Positions 33,954 to 55,331 of a stretch of 56,737 nt of DNA are shown piece after piece (the first letter of the stretch is position 1; each line of letters starts with the position of its first letter). The position numbers and the translations under genes are program-made. Under the pieces are notes generated by a model. That model did not search any database and was not told where the DNA came from. It worked only from the letters and a program-made list of their open reading frames with translations. This stretch comes from a virus (lineage: Duplodnaviria > Caudoviricetes): positions 1-56,737 of the IMG/VR virus record IMGVR_UViG_3300042934_000724; one strand, given 5' to 3'.

Positions 33954-34408
33954 GGCTGCACCCCCTTGGCCATGGCGCCGTCCACAAGTGCGTCGAGGTC
34001 TTCGCCGATCATCCCGGTAGCGTGCGGTCCGATCCACTCGACGACTTCGATGTAGCCACTGTGACCGTGCTGAAGCCAGCGGTAGCGCTCGGCATCCTTG
34101 CGCAGCGCCTCGTTCTCGGCCTTGAGTTGCTCAATCTCCTTGAGCGTCCCAGCCTTGGCATCCGCCGCTGCGGCATCGGCGATCCCCTTGACCGCTTCGG
34201 TTACAGCGGCGCGGATGATCTGGCGCTCCGGCGATGCGGAAAGGCGGTCGTTCTCTGCCAGCAGCTCCAGCGCCACCTCCTCCACGGTCTTCTCGCCAAG
34301 GAATTCCTGCAGCGCCTCGGTGTTGCGCTTCCAGTCTGCGCAGTCGGCACGGAATGACGCGGCTTCGGCCCACAGCAGCTTCTGGAGTTTTTGTTTATCA
34401 ATGCTCAT
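33950..34408 (-). CDS. Ead/Ea22-like mosaic protein
   Basis: MSIDKQKL, LELLAE, LRKDAERYRWL, LDA.VD.AM motifs. Confidence 0.7.
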   Translation of the reverse strand: MSIDKQKLQKLLWAEAASFRADCADWKRNTEALQEFLGEKTVEEVALELLAENDRLSASPERQIIRAAVTEAVKGIADAAAADAKAGTLKEIEQLKAENEALRKDAERYRWLQHGHSGYIEVVEWIGPHATGMIGEDLDALVDGAMAKGVQP

Positions 34409-35202
34409 TGAGCCGCACTCCTTGCTTCCAGTTGTTCGGCCTGCTGAATGAGCAGCGCCCGGCGATCCGCCAGCTCATTGGCTGCCTGAATTCGCATTTC
34501 TGTTTTTTCCTCGGCTGATGCTTGGCGCATGGAAAGCATGGAATCCTTCACCGCGGCGAGCCTCTCGCGCAGCTTTGGCGAAGGCCGCGCAACCTTACCG
34601 GTGAGCAGCGCTACGACGGCCCGACCGTCTTCAGTGACCGGCACGACACTCAAGTCGGCCAGGTACTGCTGAGCGCGCTCCTGAGGGATTCGCTGCATCT
34701 GCACGGCCTTGGTGATCGCCTGTGTGCGGCGGTTGGCGTCGAAGCCGACGGACACATGCCAATTGACATGCTTGTTGTCCTCCCGCGCTTGGCCGACCAA
34801 ACGCTCGTAGGCGCTATTGAACGCCATGCGCGCACCGACCTTGTCGCCGGCATCGAGGACAGATTTCGCCGCTGCGAGTGCGAGCTGGATCTCGTCGGTC
34901 AGCACCACGGTTTCGAATTCATCGTTGGTGGTCATCGCGATCGCCCAGGCTTCGTCCTTGCACGGCCGGCCGTCAGCAACCTGAACGCGCTGAAGAATGT
35001 CGGCCATTGCCAATTTGCCCTTCACCTCAAAGCGGCAGGCCTTAAGCGCGGCTTTGACAACCGGTACCGGGTAAGCACAGAGGTCTTCGGCCATGATCGC
35101 CGCAGTGCCTGGGTTCATTTCCTGACCCATGGCCTCGGCGGTGGCGCAGATCGCAGCAGCGAGCCCGGCAACTTGCTGGTCGTTCATTTCAAAGGTACTC
35201 AT
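34405..35202 (-). CDS. Replication accessory protein (P-position)
   Basis: Follows the initiator; DGRP..DEAW, ARMAF..AY.R motifs. Confidence 0.65.
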   Translation of the reverse strand: MSTFEMNDQQVAGLAAAICATAEAMGQEMNPGTAAIMAEDLCAYPVPVVKAALKACRFEVKGKLAMADILQRVQVADGRPCKDEAWAIAMTTNDEFETVVLTDEIQLALAAAKSVLDAGDKVGARMAFNSAYERLVGQAREDNKHVNWHVSVGFDANRRTQAITKAVQMQRIPQERAQQYLADLSVVPVTEDGRAVVALLTGKVARPSPKLRERLAAVKDSMLSMRQASAEEKTEMRIQAANELADRRALLIQQAEQLEARSAAQ

Positions 35203-36160
35203 TGCGCTCTCCCGCTTGGCGCTTGGCCAAGACCATTTGCGCGGCCTGCTCCGCGGCGGAGACGTTCGCTTCGGTGCGTTCCATCTGGCGCGCGGTTGTT
35301 CCGTTGATGCGCTGCCCGGTCACCCACTGGGTGTGGTAGCTCTCGGCATTGGCCAGCAGCTCGTTGAGGCTGTGGCACTTGCGGAGCACAGCGGCATCGC
35401 TGGTTTTCAGGAAGTGAGCCGCGACGTGATGAGCGACATCGGCGCCGAGGCGGTCGACCAGTTGGCCGAGCTGGCCACCGACCTTGGCGTTCCACACAGG
35501 CCAAGTGCTGTAGCGCTTGCGGTAGGCCATGGCGTAGTTCGCCCAAACCTTGAAGGTTTTGCAGGACTGGTCTTTGGGGCCCGGCATGTCAGCGGGAATC
35601 TCAACCCGTGGCGCATCGGTGCGATCAACCACCAAAACCAGATTGCGGGCCGGCTTGTCCGGGCTGCCTTGCAAGTCCTGACTGGTATCCTGATTGGTAC
35701 CCTGATGATTGGTATCCTGATTTGTCGGAGATTTTTCCGACCCTGACTCGGATTTTTCTCCGACCTTGATCGGATTTTTTTCCGAGGTAGATCGGATTTT
35801 TTTCCGACCTTCGTTCTTTGGTGGGGTCGGATATTTTTCCGACCCATCCAGTTTCTGATTCCACTCGATCGCCTTCTCGGTCAGACGAAACAGGGTGATG
35901 TTCGAAGTGCTGGAAAGCTCAATCAGACCGGCCTCTTCCAGGGCCTTCAGCATGCGATAAGCAGTGTCCGGCTTGTCGGTGAGCAGCGGCAGCTCCTCAA
36001 TGATCTTGGCCTTGCTCAGCGCGAAGAAGATCCCGTCGTCAGTCTTGATTGGCTTGGTCCAGCTCGGGCAGCCGTAGACGAAGGCGAACAGCAGGGCTTG
36101 CTGAGAATTCAGCCCCCACTCCAACGCCTTCACCTGATTGATCGTGACGGTGAATTGCAT
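35189..36160 (-). CDS. Replication initiator (O-like) containing the origin
   Basis: N-terminal wHTH (YRMLKALEEAGLIE); internal iterons. Confidence 0.85.
   Translation of the reverse strand: MQFTVTINQVKALEWGLNSQQALLFAFVYGCPSWTKPIKTDDGIFFALSKAKIIEELPLLTDKPDTAYRMLKALEEAGLIELSSTSNITLFRLTEKAIEWNQKLDGSEKYPTPPKNEGRKKIRSTSEKNPIKVGEKSESGSEKSPTNQDTNHQGTNQDTSQDLQGSPDKPARNLVLVVDRTDAPRVEIPADMPGPKDQSCKTFKVWANYAMAYRKRYSTWPVWNAKVGGQLGQLVDRLGADVAHHVAAHFLKTSDAAVLRKCHSLNELLANAESYHTQWVTGQRINGTTARQMERTEANVSAAEQAAQMVLAKRQAGERNEYL
35725..35842. repeat. Origin iterons: five TCGGA-N6-TCCGA
   Basis: Starts at 35725, 35748, 35770, 35792, 35827 with T-tract spacers; short CTGATTGGTA-like repeats at 35677-35723. Confidence 0.85.
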
Positions 36161-36161
36161 A

Positions 36162-36911
36162 TCAGGCCTCGGCCAGCTTGTACTGAGCCCAAAGGCCGGC
36201 AATCCAGTTGACGCCCTTGGGAGTGAATTTGGATTGGTTGTAGGCGTGGCCGCTGTCGCTGGTGCCGGCTTTTACTTCGAAACGGCCGGCGTCGACGTGA
36301 GGCTGGTAGGCCTGCCACTCGCCGCCCATGCGGTACATGATCTTTTTGTCGAGCAGGAACTCGCGGAAACGCGCTTCATTGGCCTTGAGCAGTTTGGCGA
36401 CCTGGCGGAAGCCTTTCAGACCGGTAGACTCAACATATTTTTCGACAAAGGCGATCTTCGGCGCAGCTTCAATAAGCGCCTGATTGGCAGCCTGCTGAAG
36501 CTCGAACTGCTCAGCCCAAGCGCGAGCGGCGGCGGCAGGATTGGAGAAGTCAGGAAGCGTTGCCAGGACGCGTGGGCGAACCTGCTCTTCGAGTTCGGTC
36601 CAGCGGCGCACCACCGCCCTTCTCATTTTGGAGCTGTAACCAGTCAGAAGGGTCTCGGTCAGCTCTTTATCCAGCAAATACTCAGTCTGCTCACGATTCA
36701 TGCTGTCCAAATAGATGTGAGCAAAATCGCTCACATCTTCTTCGAGCTCAGACGCCATTGCTTGGATGTCGCGCTTTACATCGGGATGACGCTTCCCCGT
36801 GAGTTCAGCAATTTCGCGAGACGACATGGTGGTACGCGACACGTTTTCAGAATTCGAAAAACGTGTCGCGACATTCGCGGGGGTATTGACGAGAGAAGAT
36901 TGTGTATTCAT
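36162..36911 (-). CDS. Rha-domain / KilAC antirepressor-like protein
   Basis: MSSREIAELTGKRH..V.RDI, LTGYS...R..V..RW.ELE, LP...AARAWA, PK..F, FTPKG..WI. Confidence 0.88.
   Translation of the reverse strand: MNTQSSLVNTPANVATRFSNSENVSRTTMSSREIAELTGKRHPDVKRDIQAMASELEEDVSDFAHIYLDSMNREQTEYLLDKELTETLLTGYSSKMRRAVVRRWTELEEQVRPRVLATLPDFSNPAAAARAWAEQFELQQAANQALIEAAPKIAFVEKYVESTGLKGFRQVAKLLKANEARFREFLLDKKIMYRMGGEWQAYQPHVDAGRFEVKAGTSDSGHAYNQSKFTPKGVNWIAGLWAQYKLAEA
36833..36872. repeat. 40-bp palindromic element, copy 2 (within Rha 5' end)
   Basis: TACGCGACAC-N20-GTGTCGCGAC. Confidence 0.8.
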
Positions 36912-36972
36912 TATTGCCTCGCTGAAGTAGCAATGAGCCAGGCCACGAACCTGGTTTTTTTGTGCCTGCGAT

Positions 36973-37440
36973 TTATGCGCGGGCTTTGTGCAACTCAATC
37001 ACCGCCCCGATAGCCTCAAGGCTCGCCGACATGTACTTGGCGTGCAGGGCGCGGATCTTCTTTGCTTCGTTCGAATCGATTTCGCCGTCTTCCAGGGCGG
37101 AAGCCACCATCTGGTCAAGCGCACCACGCTGTGCGGATGCAGCCAGTGAGCGCTGATACAGATCGACGTTGTCCAACTCCCCCGCTTCCGGGATCTTCAC
37201 GAACACGCCGCCGTACATCGCGCAGATGTAGTCCGGCAGGTGCTCGGTCTTCGTTTCGCTTTCCAGCACGAAGATCTCGGCATCGCTCAGCGGCTTACAC
37301 CCGGCGGTTTCATAGATCTGGTTCTCCAGGCGCTTGTCCTTGATGCCAAGGCGAGCAGCTGCGCAATCCATCCCGCCAGGAAAAGCGTTGGACACGGCCG
37401 CCATGACTTGGCGGCGGGTCTCTAGTACGGGCGTTTTCAT
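36973..37440 (-). CDS. YmfL/CII-position regulatory protein
   Basis: PGG...AAARLG...L.N..Y, GG.FV..P, ALEDGEI...E motifs. Confidence 0.75.
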   Translation of the reverse strand: MKTPVLETRRQVMAAVSNAFPGGMDCAAARLGIKDKRLENQIYETAGCKPLSDAEIFVLESETKTEHLPDYICAMYGGVFVKIPEAGELDNVDLYQRSLAASAQRGALDQMVASALEDGEIDSNEAKKIRALHAKYMSASLEAIGAVIELHKARA

Positions 37441-37558
37441 GTCCTAGTTTTTCCTTGGGTCGGTTGCGGTCAAGATTGCTTCGTCGCTGGAATGGCTTGG
37501 GGGCGCTCATATCTGGTATGAGCAAAATTCCGGACCTTTTAAGGGCGGAAGAAATGCG

Positions 37559-37762
37559 TTAAGCGGCGATCGGGTAAATATCTGGACGAAGCTCATGGCG
37601 TGGAATACCGGTGGCTTGCTCTACTGGAATAACTCGCTCAGCTGGGATGCGACCTGTTGCGCACCACTTCTGAACGTTTTGAGGCGTACAGCCAAGAACG
37701 CGAGCAAGGGCGGACTGGCTTCCTGCTGCTTCAGCTGCACGCACGGCTGCGTTCTGGTTCAT
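37559..37762 (-). CDS. cro: Cro-like repressor (YdaS family)
   Basis: GSQSALAR.LG..PQ.V.KW HTH, ELRPDIY; divergent from cI. Confidence 0.88.
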   Translation of the reverse strand: MNQNAAVRAAEAAGSQSALARVLGCTPQNVQKWCATGRIPAERVIPVEQATGIPRHELRPDIYPIAA

Positions 37763-37783
37763 AGGCACCTCTAAAATTTGGCT

Positions 37784-37858
37784 TACAACGCAAAGTTACA
37801 ACCTTTGCCAAAAAACTACAACTGAGAATTGCAATGCTGGCTACAACGACTAGTTGTA
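37784..37858. promoter_or_regulatory. OR: three 17-bp operators TACAA-N7-TT(G/A)(T/C)A, with pR
   Basis: Operators at 37784-37800, 37817-37833, 37842-37858; minus-strand TTGTAG-17-TAACTT; cI ATG has no SD (possibly leaderless). Confidence 0.75.
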
Positions 37859-37868
37859 AAGTGTCTCT

Positions 37869-38459
37869 ATGAGCACAATCGGAAAAAGAATCGCTGCTGC
37901 ACGAGAGGCTGTCGGGCTGAACCAGTCGGAACTCGCTCGTCTATTGGGGGTTAAGCCTCAGTCCGTCCAGGCTTGGGAGGCGGACAAAAATGTTCCCCGC
38001 CCGAAGAAACTTGAAGGAATTGCAGGCGCGCTGAAGGTTTCAATCTCCCACTTGATGGGCGAATCGGGCTCATTTAGCACTCCACACTTCACTCCTCTGA
38101 CGGGCTCCGAAATCAAAGGCGCTGCGGCCAAAAACCTGAGGATCAGCTCGTCCGGCGGAGTGGAAAAAATCCTCCGTGATGTAGTGTCCCGCGCGCTTCA
38201 AAAAGGGGAGCTCGGAGAGAGTGATGTGTCACTTCTTACAGCCATGGCAAATGTCATGATTGAAAGAAACGTTTCCTCCGGGGAAAACGTGCCACATCTT
38301 CCTGATGAATTGGATGCACTCGCAGAATCCGCGTTTAAAAATGCAGACGCTGGCGGCGATTCGGGAGATATGGTGAAGATGATCGGTCATGGCCTTAAGA
38401 AGTCAGTAGCCAAGGAAAGCGGCCCTACACATGCAAAACGCAAAACCGGAACCGATTGA
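37869..38459 (+). CDS. CI-like XRE repressor with atypical C-terminal domain
   Basis: IG.RI..AR...GLNQSELA..LGV..QSV..WE HTH; no S24 Ser/Lys motifs visible. Confidence 0.85.
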   Translation: MSTIGKRIAAAREAVGLNQSELARLLGVKPQSVQAWEADKNVPRPKKLEGIAGALKVSISHLMGESGSFSTPHFTPLTGSEIKGAAAKNLRISSSGGVEKILRDVVSRALQKGELGESDVSLLTAMANVMIERNVSSGENVPHLPDELDALAESAFKNADAGGDSGDMVKMIGHGLKKSVAKESGPTHAKRKTGTD

Positions 38460-39222
38460 CATTCCACTCGCCCTTTATCTCCAGGGCGAGGCTGTTGTTG
38501 ACCCAGACGTGAAGGGTCAGCACCCACTTTTCTACGGCACCATCAGCGGGCTGAAAGGCTACCGTAGAGACCTCCATGCATACATAAAGGTATTGCCTGC
38601 CGAGCGATTGTTCGCCGAAACCATGAGCGCGAGCATCGGGAGATATTTTGGCCTACCTATTCCCCTAACTGCTCTTGCGGTTGCCCGCGGAAAAGACGTT
38701 GGGCGAGGGCACGGTAAGTGCATCGTATTGGCGAGCGTGGACACCAATGCGGTGCCTATGAGCCGCGTGATCAATTTCGACAAGGTCTCACACTTACTCA
38801 ATAAGTGGTCACACCTGCATGCCGCCATTGTCTTCGACGAACTCCTAGCTAACACCGACAGGAATTTGCGCAACCTCCTTATCGGTGGCGATGGAGCTAT
38901 TTGGCTTATCGACCACGAGGAGGCGCTGTCAGCACCAAGCCTCCAAGCGAGCGAAAATATCCGGAACCATCTTCTGGGGATGGTCATCGGAGAGGTGTCT
39001 GAGTTTGAAAGACACCAGGCGTCCAAAAAGCTGAAAGATCGATCTGCCCCAGCATATACTGCTAACTTCAGGAAACATGCTGCGGCGAGTCAGCCGCATT
39101 ATTGCCAAGTCGACCAGGCACATGTCGACAAAGTGGTGGACTTCCTCGAGTCACGCGTAAAACATATGAGCGCTCTAATGGATGGGGCTCTCGGCTTCAA
39201 ACAGAAAACCATGGCGGTCTAA
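38431..39222 (+). CDS. HipA-like (PI3/4K-fold) kinase
   Basis: AYIK, LFAE, GLPIP, FDELLANTDRNLRNLL, WLIDH catalytic motifs. Confidence 0.85.
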   Translation: MQNAKPEPIDIPLALYLQGEAVVDPDVKGQHPLFYGTISGLKGYRRDLHAYIKVLPAERLFAETMSASIGRYFGLPIPLTALAVARGKDVGRGHGKCIVLASVDTNAVPMSRVINFDKVSHLLNKWSHLHAAIVFDELLANTDRNLRNLLIGGDGAIWLIDHEEALSAPSLQASENIRNHLLGMVIGEVSEFERHQASKKLKDRSAPAYTANFRKHAAASQPHYCQVDQAHVDKVVDFLESRVKHMSALMDGALGFKQKTMAV

Positions 39223-39225
39223 AGG

Positions 39226-40113
39226 ATGCTCCCAGATCTCTCTGAATTCCCCAGCTTTCCTGAATATGAGGCGGATTGGGCCCCTGTTTACCTGGAGCCC
39301 ATCGTTCAGTCCGGCGAGCGTCTAACTATTGCAGTGGTCGCAGCTTCTGGCGACGAGGTCAACGGCTGCCTCACTATTAGTGAGAAGGCCTTGAAATGCC
39401 TATACGGCAGCTCGGCGGTAGGCATGCAACGAATGATGGGGCTTGCGTTGTCCCGCGCCCTGGAATTTGCCGAAGGCGGCTTCGAGGGGCAGTTCTCATG
39501 CGGCATTCACGGAGTAGTCATCGGCAAGACCCGCAGGGGGTTGGGCAACAACATGACCCATATCCTCCAACAAGCATCCAGCCTTACCTCAAGCCTTTCC
39601 ACCGTTCATGCCTCGGCTCTGATGGAAGAGGACGATGAGTCAGACGATCCGGTAGCCTACGAGGCAAATCTTGGGCAGCTACGATCTGACATACAGGATC
39701 GAGTGCTGGGCATTCTCCCCCGCCTGAGGGATCGCTTTAACTTGCCTTTGCATACTCAAGCAATTCAGGGAGCGCGTGGCAGCCTGTTCTTTGCTGGCAA
39801 TCGCATGGCAGCCAGCCTGGCCAAGATAAAACCATCGAAGCAAATAAGTCGCCACGTAGACGGCGCCAAGAGCCGACTATGGGATCTGCATTTCGTTAAG
39901 CATAAGGTCGCCGACGCCCCGCAGAATAAATGCACGCTATTCATCTGGACGCCAAAGGAGCTAGACAGGTTTGATCCCTCGCTCATAGCGGAATACGAGC
40001 AAAGTCTTGAAGATCTCCAGCGCCAGAGTCTTGAAGACGGCATTGAGCCACACATTTTTTACGGCGCCGAAGAGGCAGCCGCTGCCATCATTGATTATGA
40101 GCGTGCTGCCTAG
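39226..40113 (+). CDS. Kinase partner protein (DUF3037-like N-terminus)
   Basis: YLEP...SGERLTIAVV; starts 3 bp after the kinase stop; ends RAA. Confidence 0.6.
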   Translation: MLPDLSEFPSFPEYEADWAPVYLEPIVQSGERLTIAVVAASGDEVNGCLTISEKALKCLYGSSAVGMQRMMGLALSRALEFAEGGFEGQFSCGIHGVVIGKTRRGLGNNMTHILQQASSLTSSLSTVHASALMEEDDESDDPVAYEANLGQLRSDIQDRVLGILPRLRDRFNLPLHTQAIQGARGSLFFAGNRMAASLAKIKPSKQISRHVDGAKSRLWDLHFVKHKVADAPQNKCTLFIWTPKELDRFDPSLIAEYEQSLEDLQRQSLEDGIEPHIFYGAEEAAAAIIDYERAA

Positions 40114-40157
40114 TCAGGCCTTCCCGTAACGCTCACCCCGCCATCTAAGACACCTAT

Positions 40158-40188
40158 AAGCCCCTGATTCCTAAGGGGCTACAATTTT
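40158..40188 (+). terminator. Terminator of the cI-kinase-partner operon
   Basis: AGCCCCT...AGGGGCT stem followed by ACAATTTT. Confidence 0.5.
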
Positions 40189-40201
40189 CATCGCTCATAA
40201 T

Positions 40202-40242
40202 TACAATTTAAAGTTGCGCATTACAATTTTAGGTTGTAGATT
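40202..40242 (+). promoter_or_regulatory. OL operators and pL promoter
   Basis: TACAA-N7-TTGCG (40202) and TACAA-N7-TTGTA (40222) match the OR consensus; TTGCGC-17-TAGATT. Confidence 0.75.
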
Positions 40243-40292
40243 GAACCCATCGAGTCACCCAACATGGACTCGCCAGGGCCTCAGGGCCCGCA

Positions 40293-40301
40293 GCTCTTTA
40301 G
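40293..40301 (+). promoter_or_regulatory. boxA-like (nutL-type) element
   Basis: GCTCTTTAG ~50 nt after the pL -10, similar to lambdoid boxA GCTCTTTA. Confidence 0.45.
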
Positions 40302-40574
40302 CGACGCCGTTTCACCTTGCCGGATCACCACCGGCCCAGATTCGAAGGCAGCGATGAACCGGCCTCAACGGTTCAGAGGGTTGGCAACTGACCCGGGCGT
40401 GCAGCGTAAAACGTCGAAAGTAGTTATCCAGCGGGAGAACAAGCCGAAAGGTCCGCGGCTGGAGAAACAATTTGAATTGATCTGTACCGCGCCAGTCGCG
40501 CCGAAGGATCAGCGGAGATTTTCACTGATGCACCTGGTGACGGGTGCATTGGGAAAACAACCGAGGGCACCACG

Positions 40575-40772
40575 ATGAATAAGGTCATCCACATCACCCT
40601 GCGCGGTGAGCTGCAGGTCTTCGCCGACGCCGACCTAAATGCCTGCATCCGAGAGGCGAACAGGCTCAACGCTGAGCGTGGACTCACCAGTGGCGTGCGC
40701 GTTGTTGAGTGCGAAGACGGCCATCGAATGACGGCGGCTGATTGCAAGGCTGCTGCCCGATCCTCTCTATGA
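40575..40772 (+). CDS. Early hypothetical protein (65 aa)
   Basis: GAGG SD; first clear ORF after pL. Confidence 0.6.
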   Translation: MNKVIHITLRGELQVFADADLNACIREANRLNAERGLTSGVRVVECEDGHRMTAADCKAAARSSL

Positions 40773-42650: not shown

Positions 42651-43793
42651 ATGTCCGCAAAAGCCCAACACGCACCTTTGCAGGAATCCATCGAAATGAC
42701 CTCTGTAGCGCCAAAAGTAGCTGTCACCGACATCGCCGAATATCGGCCACATGAAGAACAGATCGTCCGTCTGGAAACGACCTACGCGAACCTGGTTGTC
42801 GACTGCTCTACCAGTGAGGGCTTGGCGAATGCGAAGGAAGTTCGCGTGGATATTCGCGATGTCCGCTACGCCTTGGCCAATACCACGAAAACGGCGCTGG
42901 TTCCCTATCAGCAGGCGGTTAAAGACGCCCAGGCTCGCGTCAACCAAGTGAAGGAATTTGGTGAAGCACTGAAGGAGCGCGTGCTGGCGATCGAAGCGCC
43001 TGTAGACGAGGCAATCAAGGCCGAAGAAAAGCGCGCCGCTGACGCCAAGGCCGAACGCGAGCGTGTCGAGGCTGAACGTGTCGAGGCCATCCGGAAAAAA
43101 ATTACCCGATTCAGCTCTGTAGCAGCAGCGTACGCAAGCCGCAGTGCTGCCGATGTTGCAGCCGTAATTCAAAGCGTCAAAGAGTCGGTAATCCTGCCAG
43201 ACGAATACGCCGAGTTTGAAGCTGAAGCCACCATCGCCCGCGACAACGCTATTGATCAGCTTGAAGCGCTGCACCGGGCTGCTGTTGACCGCGAAGAGGC
43301 GGCAGCCAAGCTACTGGCCCAACAAAAAGAGCTGGACGAACTGCGTGAGAAGCAACGCATCGCCGATGCTGAAGCAGAGGAGTTGCGCAAGCAGCGCGCC
43401 GAGGAAGATCGCCTGCGCTTGAAGCAGCAGCAGGATGAACTCGACCAGCAGCGCCGCGATATGGAAGCGCAACAACGCCAGCAACGTGAGCAGCAAGAAG
43501 AACAGCAGCGCCAGCAGCGCGAACGCGATGCGCAGTATCAGCGCGACCAAGAAGAGTTGGCTCGCCTGCGCGCACTGGCTGCAGCACCCGGTGCGGTTGC
43601 AGGCGTCATCACGACACCAGCCGTTACCGACACAGCGCCAGCAGATGCAGTGGGAGTTGATCCGGTTCCAGTGGCTGACGAAGTCGCTGACTCGAACATG
43701 CCGAGCGCCAACGAAGTGGTCGAGGTCGTGGCCATGGCCTTCTGCGTCACCAATGACGAGGCATCGGCCTGGCTGCGCGCCCTGTCGTTCTAA
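42651..43793 (+). CDS. Coiled-coil protein upstream of the recombination genes
   Basis: 380 aa, E/Q/R/A-rich coiled coil. Confidence 0.75.
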   Translation: MSAKAQHAPLQESIEMTSVAPKVAVTDIAEYRPHEEQIVRLETTYANLVVDCSTSEGLANAKEVRVDIRDVRYALANTTKTALVPYQQAVKDAQARVNQVKEFGEALKERVLAIEAPVDEAIKAEEKRAADAKAERERVEAERVEAIRKKITRFSSVAAAYASRSAADVAAVIQSVKESVILPDEYAEFEAEATIARDNAIDQLEALHRAAVDREEAAAKLLAQQKELDELREKQRIADAEAEELRKQRAEEDRLRLKQQQDELDQQRRDMEAQQRQQREQQEEQQRQQRERDAQYQRDQEELARLRALAAAPGAVAGVITTPAVTDTAPADAVGVDPVPVADEVADSNMPSANEVVEVVAMAFCVTNDEASAWLRALSF

Positions 43794-45496: not shown

Positions 45497-45739
45497 ATGA
45501 TCAGCAACCACCTCAACCTCGTAGAGCAGCACCGACCGGATGCCGAGTCGATCGCTGAGCGAATCGCGCAGTACCTGGCCGCCGGCGGACGGATCGACCA
45601 ACTGAAAAGCCCGCCGCGCAATCCGCTGCCACCGCCCCGCTCGAAGAAAATAGACCCTGAAACGGTCCTAAAGCGTCGGCCGAAACCGATATCGGCGGCT
45701 GACCGCAAGGCTCTGCGCAAAATGGCGGACTCGCTATGA
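45497..45739 (+). CDS. Hypothetical protein
   Basis: AGGAG SD; YLAAGG.I motif. Confidence 0.65.
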   Translation: MISNHLNLVEQHRPDAESIAERIAQYLAAGGRIDQLKSPPRNPLPPPRSKKIDPETVLKRRPKPISAADRKALRKMADSL

Positions 45740-46200
45740 AGTCGAAACGCAAACCCAACAACGGTTTGGCCCGGGCAGAACGCAGCTGCCGGGCGCTGCT
45801 GCGCACCAACCACGTCGCAGTGGTGAACATCGACCCCAGCGGCAGCCAGATCATGGCGAACTGGAAGAGCTGCAAGCAGATCCGCAGTCTGGCGATCGCC
45901 AACGCGATATTCGATTTCTCCTACCGCTGGACGATCTACATCGCCGCCATGTGTCGAGACGAGCGCGGCGCCGAGTACATCAAGTCGGTGGAGATCTCGC
46001 CCGAGGGCATCTACAAGGTCGAGCGCTTGACCGATGCGATCGAGCATTACTACCTGGAGCTGCGCAACAGCGCGAACCCGAACCATCTGGTTGCGTCAGG
46101 CTGGATCGCCATCCCCGACGAGATATCGATGGACGAAGCCCAAGCAGCGAAGCTGTTCTACGCCGCCGGCGCCTGGCATCAGGTGAAGGTCGCAGCGTGA
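45736..46200 (+). CDS. Hypothetical protein
   Basis: ATGA-coupled, 154 aa. Confidence 0.7.
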   Translation: MKSKRKPNNGLARAERSCRALLRTNHVAVVNIDPSGSQIMANWKSCKQIRSLAIANAIFDFSYRWTIYIAAMCRDERGAEYIKSVEISPEGIYKVERLTDAIEHYYLELRNSANPNHLVASGWIAIPDEISMDEAQAAKLFYAAGAWHQVKVAA

Positions 46201-53769: not shown

Positions 53770-54003
53770 ATGGCAAAGGTCATTGCCCAAATTACGGCTA
53801 GGCTGCCGCGCCTCATGGAGGCAGGCGAATACAGGAAGCTGCGGTACGCCGGCGGTAAGCCGAGTCTGCAGCAGTTGAAAAAATGGATTGAGGAAGGCGA
53901 AGTAGTGGGAGAGGTAAAAGGCGGGATGTATTTCGTGGATCTGCAGGCGGTTGTGCTGGGGTCGAATGATCCCCTGCTCGCCAAGATGATGGAGGTGGGC
54001 TGA
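53770..54003 (+). CDS. Excisionase-like protein
   Basis: Small wHTH-like ORF (LKKWIEEG.V.G...GG.YFVD) coupled to the integrase. Confidence 0.7.
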   Translation: MAKVIAQITARLPRLMEAGEYRKLRYAGGKPSLQQLKKWIEEGEVVGEVKGGMYFVDLQAVVLGSNDPLLAKMMEVG

Positions 54004-55142
54004 TGGCTCCGCCGCGCGCCAGGACAATCAAGAACCGGGATCTGCCGGCCAACCTTTACCCGAACGGGAAATATTGGCAGTACAAGAACCCGATCACCGG
54101 CAAGAAGACCAGCATCAATAAGCCGATGGCGGAGGCCATCAAGCTGGCCAACGCCGCCAACGCGAAGTTGCTGCCCTTGCTGGCCGACGACGGCGCGCTG
54201 CTGGCAATGCTCACAGGCGAGGCCGCGCCGAAGTTCAGCGGGTGCCTCGATCGTTTCGAGAAGGAATGGCTGGGCACAAGGAACTATGCCGAGCGGACGT
54301 TGAAGGAAATCAAGTTCAAGTTGGCTCGGTACCGGGATGACCTGGGCGATTTGATGATGGGGCAACTCGACGTGCTGACAGTGGCCGAATACCTGGACGG
54401 TTTCGAAAATAACGCCTACACCAAGCATCGCGGGCTGCTCGTCCAGATCTTCGCCTTCGCCGTGGCCAAGGGCTTGTGCGAACGCAACTCGGCCGAGCTG
54501 ACACTGGTCAAGAAGGAGTCCGAGAAGAAGCGCCAGCGCCACACCGTTGAGGGATTGAATGCGATTCTGAATTACGTGGGGACGCCGATCTGGCTGAAGC
54601 GCGCGATCCGGCTGGGTTTGCTGAGTCTTCAGCGGCGGGAGGATATTGTGATGTGGCCGAAGTCAGCCGTTGACCTCGAGCAGAACACCATCAAGGTGTC
54701 GCCCGGGAAGACGCAGAACTATGGGAAGCCTGTGCACCTGGAGATTGCCATGGGACCGGCGCTGCGCGACGTGGTCGCCGAGTGCATGCGGTCGCCCGTC
54801 GTGTGCCCTTACCTCATCCACTACTCGCCGAAGGCCCGCAAACGGTCGCAGCTCGACGCCAAGCTTCACTGGAACGCCGTCACGCCCGACTACCTGACAA
54901 AGTCATTCGCCCAGGCGCGGGATGATTCCGAGGCATACAAGGACATACCCGCCGGCGAGCGCCCCACCTTCCACGAGATCCGGGCGCTGGGTGCGTGGCT
55001 GTATGAGCAGCAGGGTTTCCCGCAGGAATATATCCAAGGGCTGATGGGTCACGCGGACGTCAAAATGACTGAACACTACCAGGCGGGCCACGGCGATGAC
55101 GCCGTGGTGTACATGCGGGTGAGCGCCGACCTGAAGGTGTGA
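54003..55142 (+). CDS. int: Tyrosine integrase (lambda Int-like)
   Basis: LPANLY..Y.NP.TGK arm domain; QRREDI, KT, FHEIR, LMGH, TEHY catalytic residues; adjacent to att. Confidence 0.96.
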   Translation: MAPPRARTIKNRDLPANLYPNGKYWQYKNPITGKKTSINKPMAEAIKLANAANAKLLPLLADDGALLAMLTGEAAPKFSGCLDRFEKEWLGTRNYAERTLKEIKFKLARYRDDLGDLMMGQLDVLTVAEYLDGFENNAYTKHRGLLVQIFAFAVAKGLCERNSAELTLVKKESEKKRQRHTVEGLNAILNYVGTPIWLKRAIRLGLLSLQRREDIVMWPKSAVDLEQNTIKVSPGKTQNYGKPVHLEIAMGPALRDVVAECMRSPVVCPYLIHYSPKARKRSQLDAKLHWNAVTPDYLTKSFAQARDDSEAYKDIPAGERPTFHEIRALGAWLYEQQGFPQEYIQGLMGHADVKMTEHYQAGHGDDAVVYMRVSADLKV

Positions 55143-55187: not shown

Positions 55188-55303
55188 CAGACAACAAAAA
55201 AGGGCCCACCTTTCGGTGAGCCCTTCTAGACCGCCCAGCAGAGCGGATTTTGTTTGGTAGGCGCGATTGGACTCGAACCAACGACCCCCACCATGTCAAG
55301 GTG
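55188..55303. repeat. Attachment site, right copy
   Basis: Direct repeat of 1295-1410; completes the intact tRNA. Confidence 0.95.
55195..55225 (-). terminator. tRNA-Val terminator
   Basis: Minus strand AAGGGCTCACC-GAAA-GGTGGGCCCTT followed by a T-run. Confidence 0.85.
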
Positions 55304-55331
55304 GTGCTCTAACCAACTGAGCTACGTGCCT
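55255..55331 (-). tRNA. tRNA-Val(GAC)
   Basis: 77 nt AGGCACGTAGCTCAGTTGGTTAGAGC ACCACC TTGACAT GGTGG...GGTTCGAGTCC...CCTACCA. Confidence 0.97.

Follow-up and report, generated by a model that had tools for sequence, protein, structure and literature searches.

A HipA_2-family kinase, its partner and an S24-less cI-type repressor as a candidate three-part defence module in the immunity operon of a lambdoid Pseudomonas prophage

The IMG/VR virus record IMGVR_UViG_3300042934_000724 (56,737 bases, analysed over its whole length and referred to below as the window) carries three consecutive genes for a cI-like repressor, a HipA_2-family kinase and a protein that we call the partner (Table 1). The best explanation of this locus is that a lambdoid Pseudomonas prophage has its immunity operon here, and we consider it fairly probable that the three genes form a kinase toxin-antitoxin-type defence module of three parts that is read together with the repressor. 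By analogy with related systems, the kinase would be a latent toxin in the lysogen, kept inactive by the partner. A superinfecting phage would upset this balance, most simply by halting the resupply of a protease-labile partner, and the freed kinase could then phosphorylate an essential host protein, arrest the cell and abort the infection. The repressor, its self-cleaving S24 domain lost, would belong to the module as well, and its C-terminal domain is predicted to contact the N-lobe of the kinase close to the lysine that binds ATP. A kinase-docking domain of this kind would give the repressor a HipB-like role, in which it holds the kinase at the operators and may also keep it in check. An initial annotation of the locus had offered the choice between an abortive toxin-antitoxin pair and a lysogeny switch; both branches survive, and the one with a toxin and a labile antitoxin draws support, by analogy, from a related HipA-like and DUF3037 pair and from the conserved -AA tail of the partner.

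Judged by sequence, the kinase and partner probably represent a divergent branch within the HipA_2 and DUF3037 pair that is known as PDC-M66, DS-6 or HipAD. Because a characterised relative exists, the pair is not novel in kind, and the initial caveat that such a match would remove novelty applies to it. According to the report on the Retron-Sda1 operon, deletion of its HipA-like kinase abolished defence against phage Bas51 and deletion of its DUF3037 gene was toxic, and loss of the non-coding RNA or of reverse transcriptase activity had no effect (PMC12548924). For DS-6, since renamed HipAD, the publication describes a catalytic mutant of DS-6A that lost defence and an AlphaFold3 prediction of binding between the A and B proteins (PMC13092281). 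Our DUF3037 search of 300 genomes and viral contigs recovered strong HipA_2 kinases (E 1e-18 to 1e-89), each directly upstream of a DUF3037 protein, and all five canonical pairs tested matched both PDC-M66A and PDC-M66B. The name HipAD is said to come from work by Brenes and Laub on E. coli prophages (2025, Cell Host Microbe 33:1004). The branches are alike in having a short HipA_2-family kinase followed by a partner of about 280-295 residues, encoded by overlapping or abutting genes, with an invariant K, E, FD..N.DR...N and IDH in the kinase and an N-terminal P-x-V-x-(S/T)-G-E motif that is common to the window partner and to DUF3037 proteins of the same length. They differ in that the window kinase is marginal to PF20613 and PDC-M66A and the window partner is invisible to PF11236 and PDC-M66B, in the -AA end of the window partner family, and in a fixed third gene, whose DNA-binding product has a C-terminal domain linked to the kinase. 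Two IMG/VR contigs (L078:406-3370 and L080:1075-3364) carry canonical PDC-M66 pairs directly downstream of an S24-type cI, and the slot after cI is therefore used by both branches.

The kinase was initially described as an intact HipA-like enzyme, and all of the motifs named in that description could be located, namely K53, E63, D136-x4-N141-x-D143-R144-x3-N148 and I160-D161-H162. K53, E63, D136, N141, D143, R144, N148, D161 and H162 show no variation among 32 close relatives, and the same set is invariant in an alignment with five strong, DUF3037-linked PF20613 kinases. The match of the kinase itself to Pfam PF20613 (HipA_2) is a marginal pass over residues 56-189 (E 1.8e-6, 27.9 bits, cut-off 27), and precomputed annotations place PF20613 in 32 of its 34 database relatives. 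No classical HipA family was matched in Pfam, where the only entries at E up to 0.1 were HipA_2 and a weak PI3_PI4_kinase.

The partner has a confident AlphaFold2 (AF2) model, with a predicted local distance difference test (pLDDT) score of 90, in which two domains are joined by a linker at residues 131-144. A profile search of 1.84 billion representatives returned 782 proteins of its family at E 0.001 or better (603 at 1e-10), and nearly all of the best 150 of these 782 matches are about 280-300 residues long and aligned end to end. Across 147 sequences of the family, the nearly invariant columns are M1, P9, E24, P25, S29, G30, E31, G100, F171 and L221. Neither Pfam, NCBIfam nor PADLOC returned anything for the partner, precomputed PF11236 (DUF3037) annotations are present in none of 37 close relatives, and a PF11236 search of the window record and three host genomes gave sub-threshold matches only, all of them elsewhere. 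An hhalign comparison of the partner profile with five long DUF3037 proteins was collinear (18-284 against 16-284, E 0.0035). Among the nearest ESM Atlas clusters of the partner, 28 of 30 fall in one set, whose shown cluster contains 19% PF11236 members. A match to a DUF1828 protein in BFVD (E 7e-4) fits the make-up of DUF3037 plus DUF1829 reported for DS-6B (PMC13092281). As far as these profiles can tell, the partner is probably a remote relative of DUF3037 and not a demonstrated member.

Hit lists from structure searches with the partner were filled by its C-terminal domain. With VIA-align, this domain (about residues 143-295) scored Z 9.5-8.1 to the ERCC1 central domain, CdiA-CT, FANCM, Hef, PspGI and Can2, at a root-mean-square deviation of about 3 Å over 108-128 residues and against a stated background of 7-8 for the best Z without a true match; Foldseek gave E of about 0.01. 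None of the catalytic D, E or K residues of the PD-(D/E)xK/ERCC4 type is conserved in this domain among the 147 sequences, and because no acidic or lysine residue is conserved there a catalytic nuclease is unlikely. The partner ends in ...YERAA, and the degron-like RAA tail that had been noted from the single sequence proved to be widespread, with -AA at the end of 99 of the 147 family representatives and A at the end of 124, far above chance for a family in which alanine makes up 10% overall. The -AA end is found in 23 of the 37 proteins of the close set and in none of the five canonical long DUF3037 partners. A C-terminal Ala-Ala marks substrates of ClpXP (ClpX-type degrons), and the conserved tail fits a partner that is putatively short-lived and protease-labile.

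In the repressor, residues 8-61 match the helix-turn-helix (HTH) family HTH_3 (E 2.6e-13) and residues 1-65 are 60% identical to the CI of Pseudomonas phage PS-1. The locus has the Cro/C1-type N-terminal HTH, the divergent cro and the repeated operators of a lambdoid CI region, but S24 is absent, and the Pfam scan found neither S24 nor any other family over repressor residues 70-196. A word-based search of 5.8 billion proteins with these residues found only three relatives, and for the C-terminal domain nothing usable came up among ESM Atlas neighbours, the best of which scored 0.80. The domain has a helical segment at about residues 97-135 with the pattern ...G-x-L-x-x-S-D-x-x-L-L..., followed in Pseudomonas-type sequences by an extension (residues 138-181) with the pattern VP..L..LAEAAF....GG..D.LKM..HG, and D167, M171 and G175 are invariant in 26 sequences. 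The Ser/Gly-rich linker, which had been put forward as a target of the kinase, is not conserved among relatives and is therefore a weak candidate for a specific phosphorylation site.

A co-occurrence of this C-terminal domain with the kinase, originally suggested as a check, was found in all 26 loci that have an unbroken kinase at least 40% identical to that of the window. In each, an open reading frame (ORF) with the C-terminal domain lies upstream and overlaps the kinase start, and the partner lies downstream. These 26 include duplicates (L003, L051 and L052 pair with the window, L010 with L065, L007 with L064 and L011 with L066), and L012 was left out, as its kinase ORF is broken and its neighbour is a TetR-like gene. 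Two independent checks were a BLAST comparison of related loci and a search for the C-terminal domain in 401 Pseudomonas genomes. When the window repressor was compared with the ORFs of related loci whose kinases are 44-73% identical, only its C-terminal part (about residues 84-195) matched, and the matching ORF was always the one that overlaps the kinase start. By eye, the domain sits behind at least five unrelated HTH types; type II antitoxins are typically built in this way, with a DNA-binding head that varies and a tail that is conserved, beside the gene of the toxin. The 401 genomes gave four matches, three of which are followed by kinase and partner (one belongs to the prophage lineage of the window). 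The fourth is an orphan 59-residue ORF (L086:1483-1662) that contains little beyond the predicted kinase-binding motif (VPKHLEGLVDAAF...DVLKMVSYGLEK), with no HTH and no kinase within 1.5 kb; it may be what is left of a decayed locus, or else a protein that binds a kinase on its own. Among 67 loci examined by BLAST, the partner comes directly after the kinase in 36, including all 26 close ones. A clear divergent Cro-like gene was seen by eye in about 15 of the 26, and elsewhere the nearest divergent ORF looks spurious.

The helical segment reaches beyond these close relatives. It also ends HTH proteins that overlap kinases of only 25-30% identity, in a Verrucomicrobiota metagenome-assembled genome (MAG), Halomonas, an Acidithiobacillus MAG, other MAGs and Alteromonas phage P24, which has the identical three-gene order, and by eye it ends an Arc-fold protein preceding the kinase in Acinetobacter phage vB_AbaS_qsb1, where an Arc-like protein, kinase and partner are encoded together (L002:2427-5570). 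In reciprocal searches of 5646 ORFs with hidden Markov models (HMMs), these upstream ORFs led the foreign matches, at weak E values of 0.002-0.09 and of 6e-4 to 0.02 in reverse. BLASTP found no significant C-terminal similarity between the repressors of the window and P24, and the link between these two rests on the short helix motif. The qsb1 module sits between tail genes, beside a divergent pair of an Arc-like and a BRO gene, a layout that we take to recall the P22 immI region. In Acinetobacter ursingii (L013:4456-7621), and also in L014 and L017, the same kinase clade stands behind an ordinary S24-type cI; between cI and kinase, at 5616-5918 of L013, lies a 100-residue ORF of no known family that may be a free-standing counterpart of the repressor C-terminal domain.

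Structure prediction of the complex, another of the checks proposed at the outset, supports binding between the repressor C-terminal domain and the kinase. The interaction score (ipSAE) of the kinase with repressor residues 90-196 was 0.81, 0.80 and 0.80 in three runs, against 0.00 for the best of three controls; the mark used is reached by 58 of 80 solved complexes and by 2 of 110 mismatched pairs, and, with alignments of our own as input, it applies only roughly here. The three runs share at least 92% of their contacts, and the partner-chain pLDDT is 70. The predicted interface lies between repressor residues 138-181 and kinase residues 13-17, 39-45, 54-60, 84-99 and 223-226, so that the contact surface on the kinase would be the N-lobe sheet beside the ATP-binding K53. 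Because the kinase profile lacks a relative in the PDB and the contact segment is not part of the HTH, memory of HipA-HipB structures is an unlikely source of this prediction.

Several results weigh against a defence module of this kind, or against the assignments on which it is built. Defence that depends on the kinase and toxicity upon loss of the partner are known for the relatives only, and in the Retron-Sda1 study deletion of the HTH gene left defence unaffected (PMC12548924). If repressor and partner both restrain the kinase, the division of labour between them is unexplained. The kinase clears its Pfam threshold by less than one bit, its match to PDC-M66A (E 6.5e-4) is limited to 42 residues (127-168), its AF2 model is poor (mean pLDDT 63, below 50 in the catalytic region), and a PDB sequence search with its profile gave chance-level rows only, at E 0.24 or worse. 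The DUF3037-like N-terminus of the initial annotation stands as far as the collinear alignment and the common motif go, but not as family membership: PF11236 does not match the partner even at E 10 and is found in none of the 147 family representatives at E 0.01, PADLOC PDC-M66B gives no match at E 10, and the hhalign probability was 9%, with E rising to 0.13 when a smaller DUF3037 set of four mixed sequences was used. The 26/26 count is not independent, because the HMM of the C-terminal domain was built from 20 of the 26 and several of the loci are duplicates. Defence cargo is usually sporadic, and a kinase that never parts from this repressor type fits a core switch as well as it fits defence; the strict linkage and the loss of S24 pull toward a role in lysogeny. 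The terminator that had been assigned to all three genes is also in doubt. The hairpin between the partner stop and the OL-like cluster, followed by ACAATTTTC, is present, but it makes a weak terminator (the fold z-score of the 96-nucleotide stretch is -0.95), and because the consensus terminator scan did not list it, we call it terminator-like only.

The coverage of the genes in RNA libraries has to be read with similar care. Contigs of three libraries from three studies (X6, X8 and X9) cover 37909-40119 at 99-100% identity, and in X6 the repressor-kinase junction is spanned by one contig and the kinase-partner junction by another, which counts in favour of the module. Such contigs prove neither a single transcript nor its strand, and the libraries may contain DNA; this limits the case for a jointly expressed module. 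Contigs of the same three libraries leave 34000-37900 uncovered and beyond 40420 include solely a 35-base X6 piece at 43503-43537. Since words from 37500-40300 served to select the runs, and these consist of contigs, missing cover is not evidence of silence.

The alternative that we take most seriously, while still judging it unlikely, is that phages of this group use the kinase to trigger induction and that any effect on defence is secondary. Without S24 there would be no RecA cleavage; the repressor would instead be bound by the kinase, the partner would sense a signal such as DNA damage, proteolytic stress or a superinfecting phage, and the kinase would phosphorylate or release the repressor and so bring about prophage induction. 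The HTH of the repressor is still cI-like though S24 is lost, and its kinase-linked C-terminal domain persists downstream of at least five HTH types, which is what the conserved regulatory half of a repressor would be expected to do. The strict co-occurrence (26/26 loci and all three intact matches in the genome sample) and the predicted binding of repressor and kinase agree with such a switch, the putative DNA-enzyme fold of the partner C-terminal domain could serve to sense DNA, and the cro/cII operon, which is repressed, contains the sole antirepressor-like gene seen (36162-36998). Yet the characterised relatives are stand-alone, two-gene defence systems with toxin-antitoxin behaviour, and neither the linker nor the C-terminal domain of the repressor has a conserved Ser or Thr, the invariant residues being D167, M171 and G175. 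Canonical pairs also stand behind ordinary S24 repressors, and the Acinetobacter loci keep an S24 cI beside the same kinase clade, so the pair does not need this repressor type.

The predicted contact could also be an artefact, with the C-terminal domain serving only to oligomerise the repressor and being co-inherited with the kinase as part of an immunity block. All of the loci that show the co-occurrence belong to prophages of a single broad group, the domain is without a known family, and complex predictions from our own alignments are only roughly calibrated. Against these stand the swapping of the HTH half at least five times with the kinase junction still intact and overlapping, the three controls at 0.00 against 0.80, and the similar C-terminal helix upstream of kinases of 25-30% identity (in the qsb1 Arc-fold protein and in Verrucomicrobiota and other MAGs), and we regard mere linkage as quite improbable. 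We would give slightly less credence still to prophage addiction, in which the kinase and its labile partner would kill cells, or arrest them, once the prophage is lost or silenced and the repressor tether would link toxin release to the loss of immunity. The toxin-antitoxin logic of the relatives, the suggestion of a short-lived partner from the conserved -AA tail, and the single repressor-controlled promoter region that serves all three genes would suit it, but integrated prophages are rarely lost, the relatives were discovered and validated through phage defence, and nothing here distinguishes addiction from abortive infection. The readings as a defence module, a switch and an addiction system are not mutually exclusive in mechanism.

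The defence module that we favour can be set beside other kinase and exclusion systems. Like hipBA and hipBST, the window has an XRE-HTH gene upstream of and overlapping a gene for a kinase of the HipA superfamily, with an HTH protein predicted to bind the kinase, and HipBST, as here, has three components. Unlike in those systems, the kinase is 263 residues long and lacks the classical HipA families, the HTH protein is predicted to make the contact through an extension at its C-terminus, unrelated to HipB, and this protein is a prophage repressor whose operators flank the operon. In the lambda cI-rexA-rexB and 933W stk arrangements, exclusion genes are expressed with the repressor in the lysogen and lie between OR and OL. 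Stk of 933W is reported to abort HK97 infection (PMC8008677). The sequences of those systems are unrelated to ours, the window kinase has no match to the eukaryote-like kinase family PF00069, and their cI retains S24 and is not known to bind exclusion proteins. Phage PS-1 has the same divergent cro arrangement in addition to its similar CI head, and the cro-CI region shares about 69% nucleotide identity with the window, but PS-1 CI carries Peptidase_S24 (E 2.8e-17), as does the cI of L013, and there is no kinase downstream in PS-1.

What appears to be new is the S24-less cI-type repressor, its kinase-linked C-terminal domain and the predicted binding of this domain to the kinase. A repressor with S24 replaced by a kinase-linked domain, the three-gene form and the conserved -AA tail were not found described in a literature search that left most subscription journals uncovered, and the neighbourhoods of DUF3037 homologues in S1 File of PMC12548924 may already show the HTH association. 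HipA-like kinase and DUF3037 systems were validated only in 2025-2026, and the partner family points to a detection gap, being a large sister family (782 cluster representatives, with DUF3037 in 0 of the 147 scanned) that current detectors miss. Its conserved -AA tail points to proteolytic control and so offers a handle on regulation. If the predicted contact is real, the locus would be a concrete case of a temperate phage that wires its lysogeny repressor to a toxin, and it would offer a route to induction that is independent of S24. A broader and rather doubtful proposal is that the master repressor, with a kinase-docking domain in place of the RecA-sensitive S24, is the DNA-binding subunit of a HipA-like kinase complex, in this group of Pseudomonas prophages and in look-alikes in other phyla, and that one kinase, its activity controlled by a nuclease-fold partner that is open to proteolysis, decides between lysogeny maintenance, induction and abortive defence. 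If true, this would be a lysogeny switch based on phosphorylation or sequestration that doubles as an immune sensor.

Table 1. Coordinates of the genes, protein segments and regulatory elements of the immunity region in the window
Feature	Position	Strand	Description
Ant/Rha-type antirepressor-like gene	36162-36998	-	KilAC E 1e-23, Phage_pRha E 7.5e-13; within the cro/cII operon
cII-like activator gene	36973-37440	-	Downstream of cro; PF06892 Phage_CP76 E 2e-9, phrog_101 CII-like E 5e-40
cro-like gene	37559-37768	-	69 aa; YdaS_toxin/P22_Cro-type HTH, E 6.1e-19; divergent from the repressor gene
OR-like cluster	37784-37858	.	Three 17-bp sites (37784-37800, 37817-37833, 37842-37858) between cro and the repressor gene
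cI-like repressor gene	37869-38459	+	196 aa; XRE HTH at aa 1-65, Ser/Gly/Thr-rich linker, C-terminal domain replacing S24
Helical segment of the repressor C-terminal domain	38157-38273	+	aa 97-135; ...KGELGESDVSLLTAMANVMIERN; alignable throughout the Pseudomonas-type loci
Predicted kinase-binding segment of the repressor	38280-38411	+	aa 138-181; VPxLPxxLxxLAESAF...GGxxxDMxKMxxHG; complex-prediction interface
HipA_2-family Ser/Thr-type kinase gene	38431-39222	+	263 aa; catalytic residues intact
Partner gene	39226-40113	+	295 aa
Partner N-terminal domain	39226-39600	+	aa 1-125; E24-P25...S29-G30-E31 motif; AF2 pLDDT >90
Acidic disordered linker of the partner	39616-39657	+	aa 131-144; pLDDT <50 at 131-139 and 141-144
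Partner C-terminal domain	39658-40113	+	aa 145-295; putative ERCC4/XPF/restriction-endonuclease-like fold; ends in -RAA
Terminator-like hairpin	40159-40180	+	7-bp G+C-rich stem, 8-nt loop, weak U tract; in the RNA fold of 40105-40200
OL-like operator pair	40202-40238	.	Sites 40202-40218 and 40222-40238; OR motif again, just past the operon

The packing of the three genes proposed by the initial annotation was reproduced in the ORF list, with a 29-bp overlap between the repressor and kinase ORFs and a partner ORF that begins three bases past the kinase stop. A AAGGAAAG stretch lies upstream of the kinase ATG and ends 11 bases before it, and TAA-AGG directly precedes the partner ATG; as read from these junctions, the genes are too tightly packed to leave room for separate signals. 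Their position between OR and OL also held up, as one motif, TACAAY-N5-GTTGTA (17 bp), recurs at either end of the operon. When up to two mismatches are permitted and matches are counted per strand, it has 16 matches in the window against 2.2 +/- 1.9 in shuffled sequences, and the perfect palindrome is the site at 37842-37858. The consensus promoter scan listed no site upstream of the repressor gene, and Rfam gave no match within 40100-40700. The window is closely matched by a near-identical prophage in Pseudomonas weihenstephanensis DSM 29166 (L003), whose kinase is 99% identical.

On the opposite strand, the antirepressor-like gene overlaps the end of the cII-like gene by 26 bases. Many of the Cro-like proteins encoded opposite these repressors end in -AA, as do those of the partner family; they include the protein of the window (...YPIAA) and the divergent ORFs of L004, L005, L007, L008, L011, L054, L055, L061-L064 and L066. 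Just past the OL-like operators, a 65-base stretch (40346-40410) is found in contigs of runs X8, X9 and X1, and as unrelated sequence flanks it on both sides there, it occurs in other contexts too. ARAGORN and Rfam conflict over a second tRNA (45727-45816 versus 1365-1456). Further along the window, a 379-residue ORF at 54003-55142 adjoins a tRNA-Val gene (55255-55331, minus strand), and this pair may mark the prophage end and attachment site.

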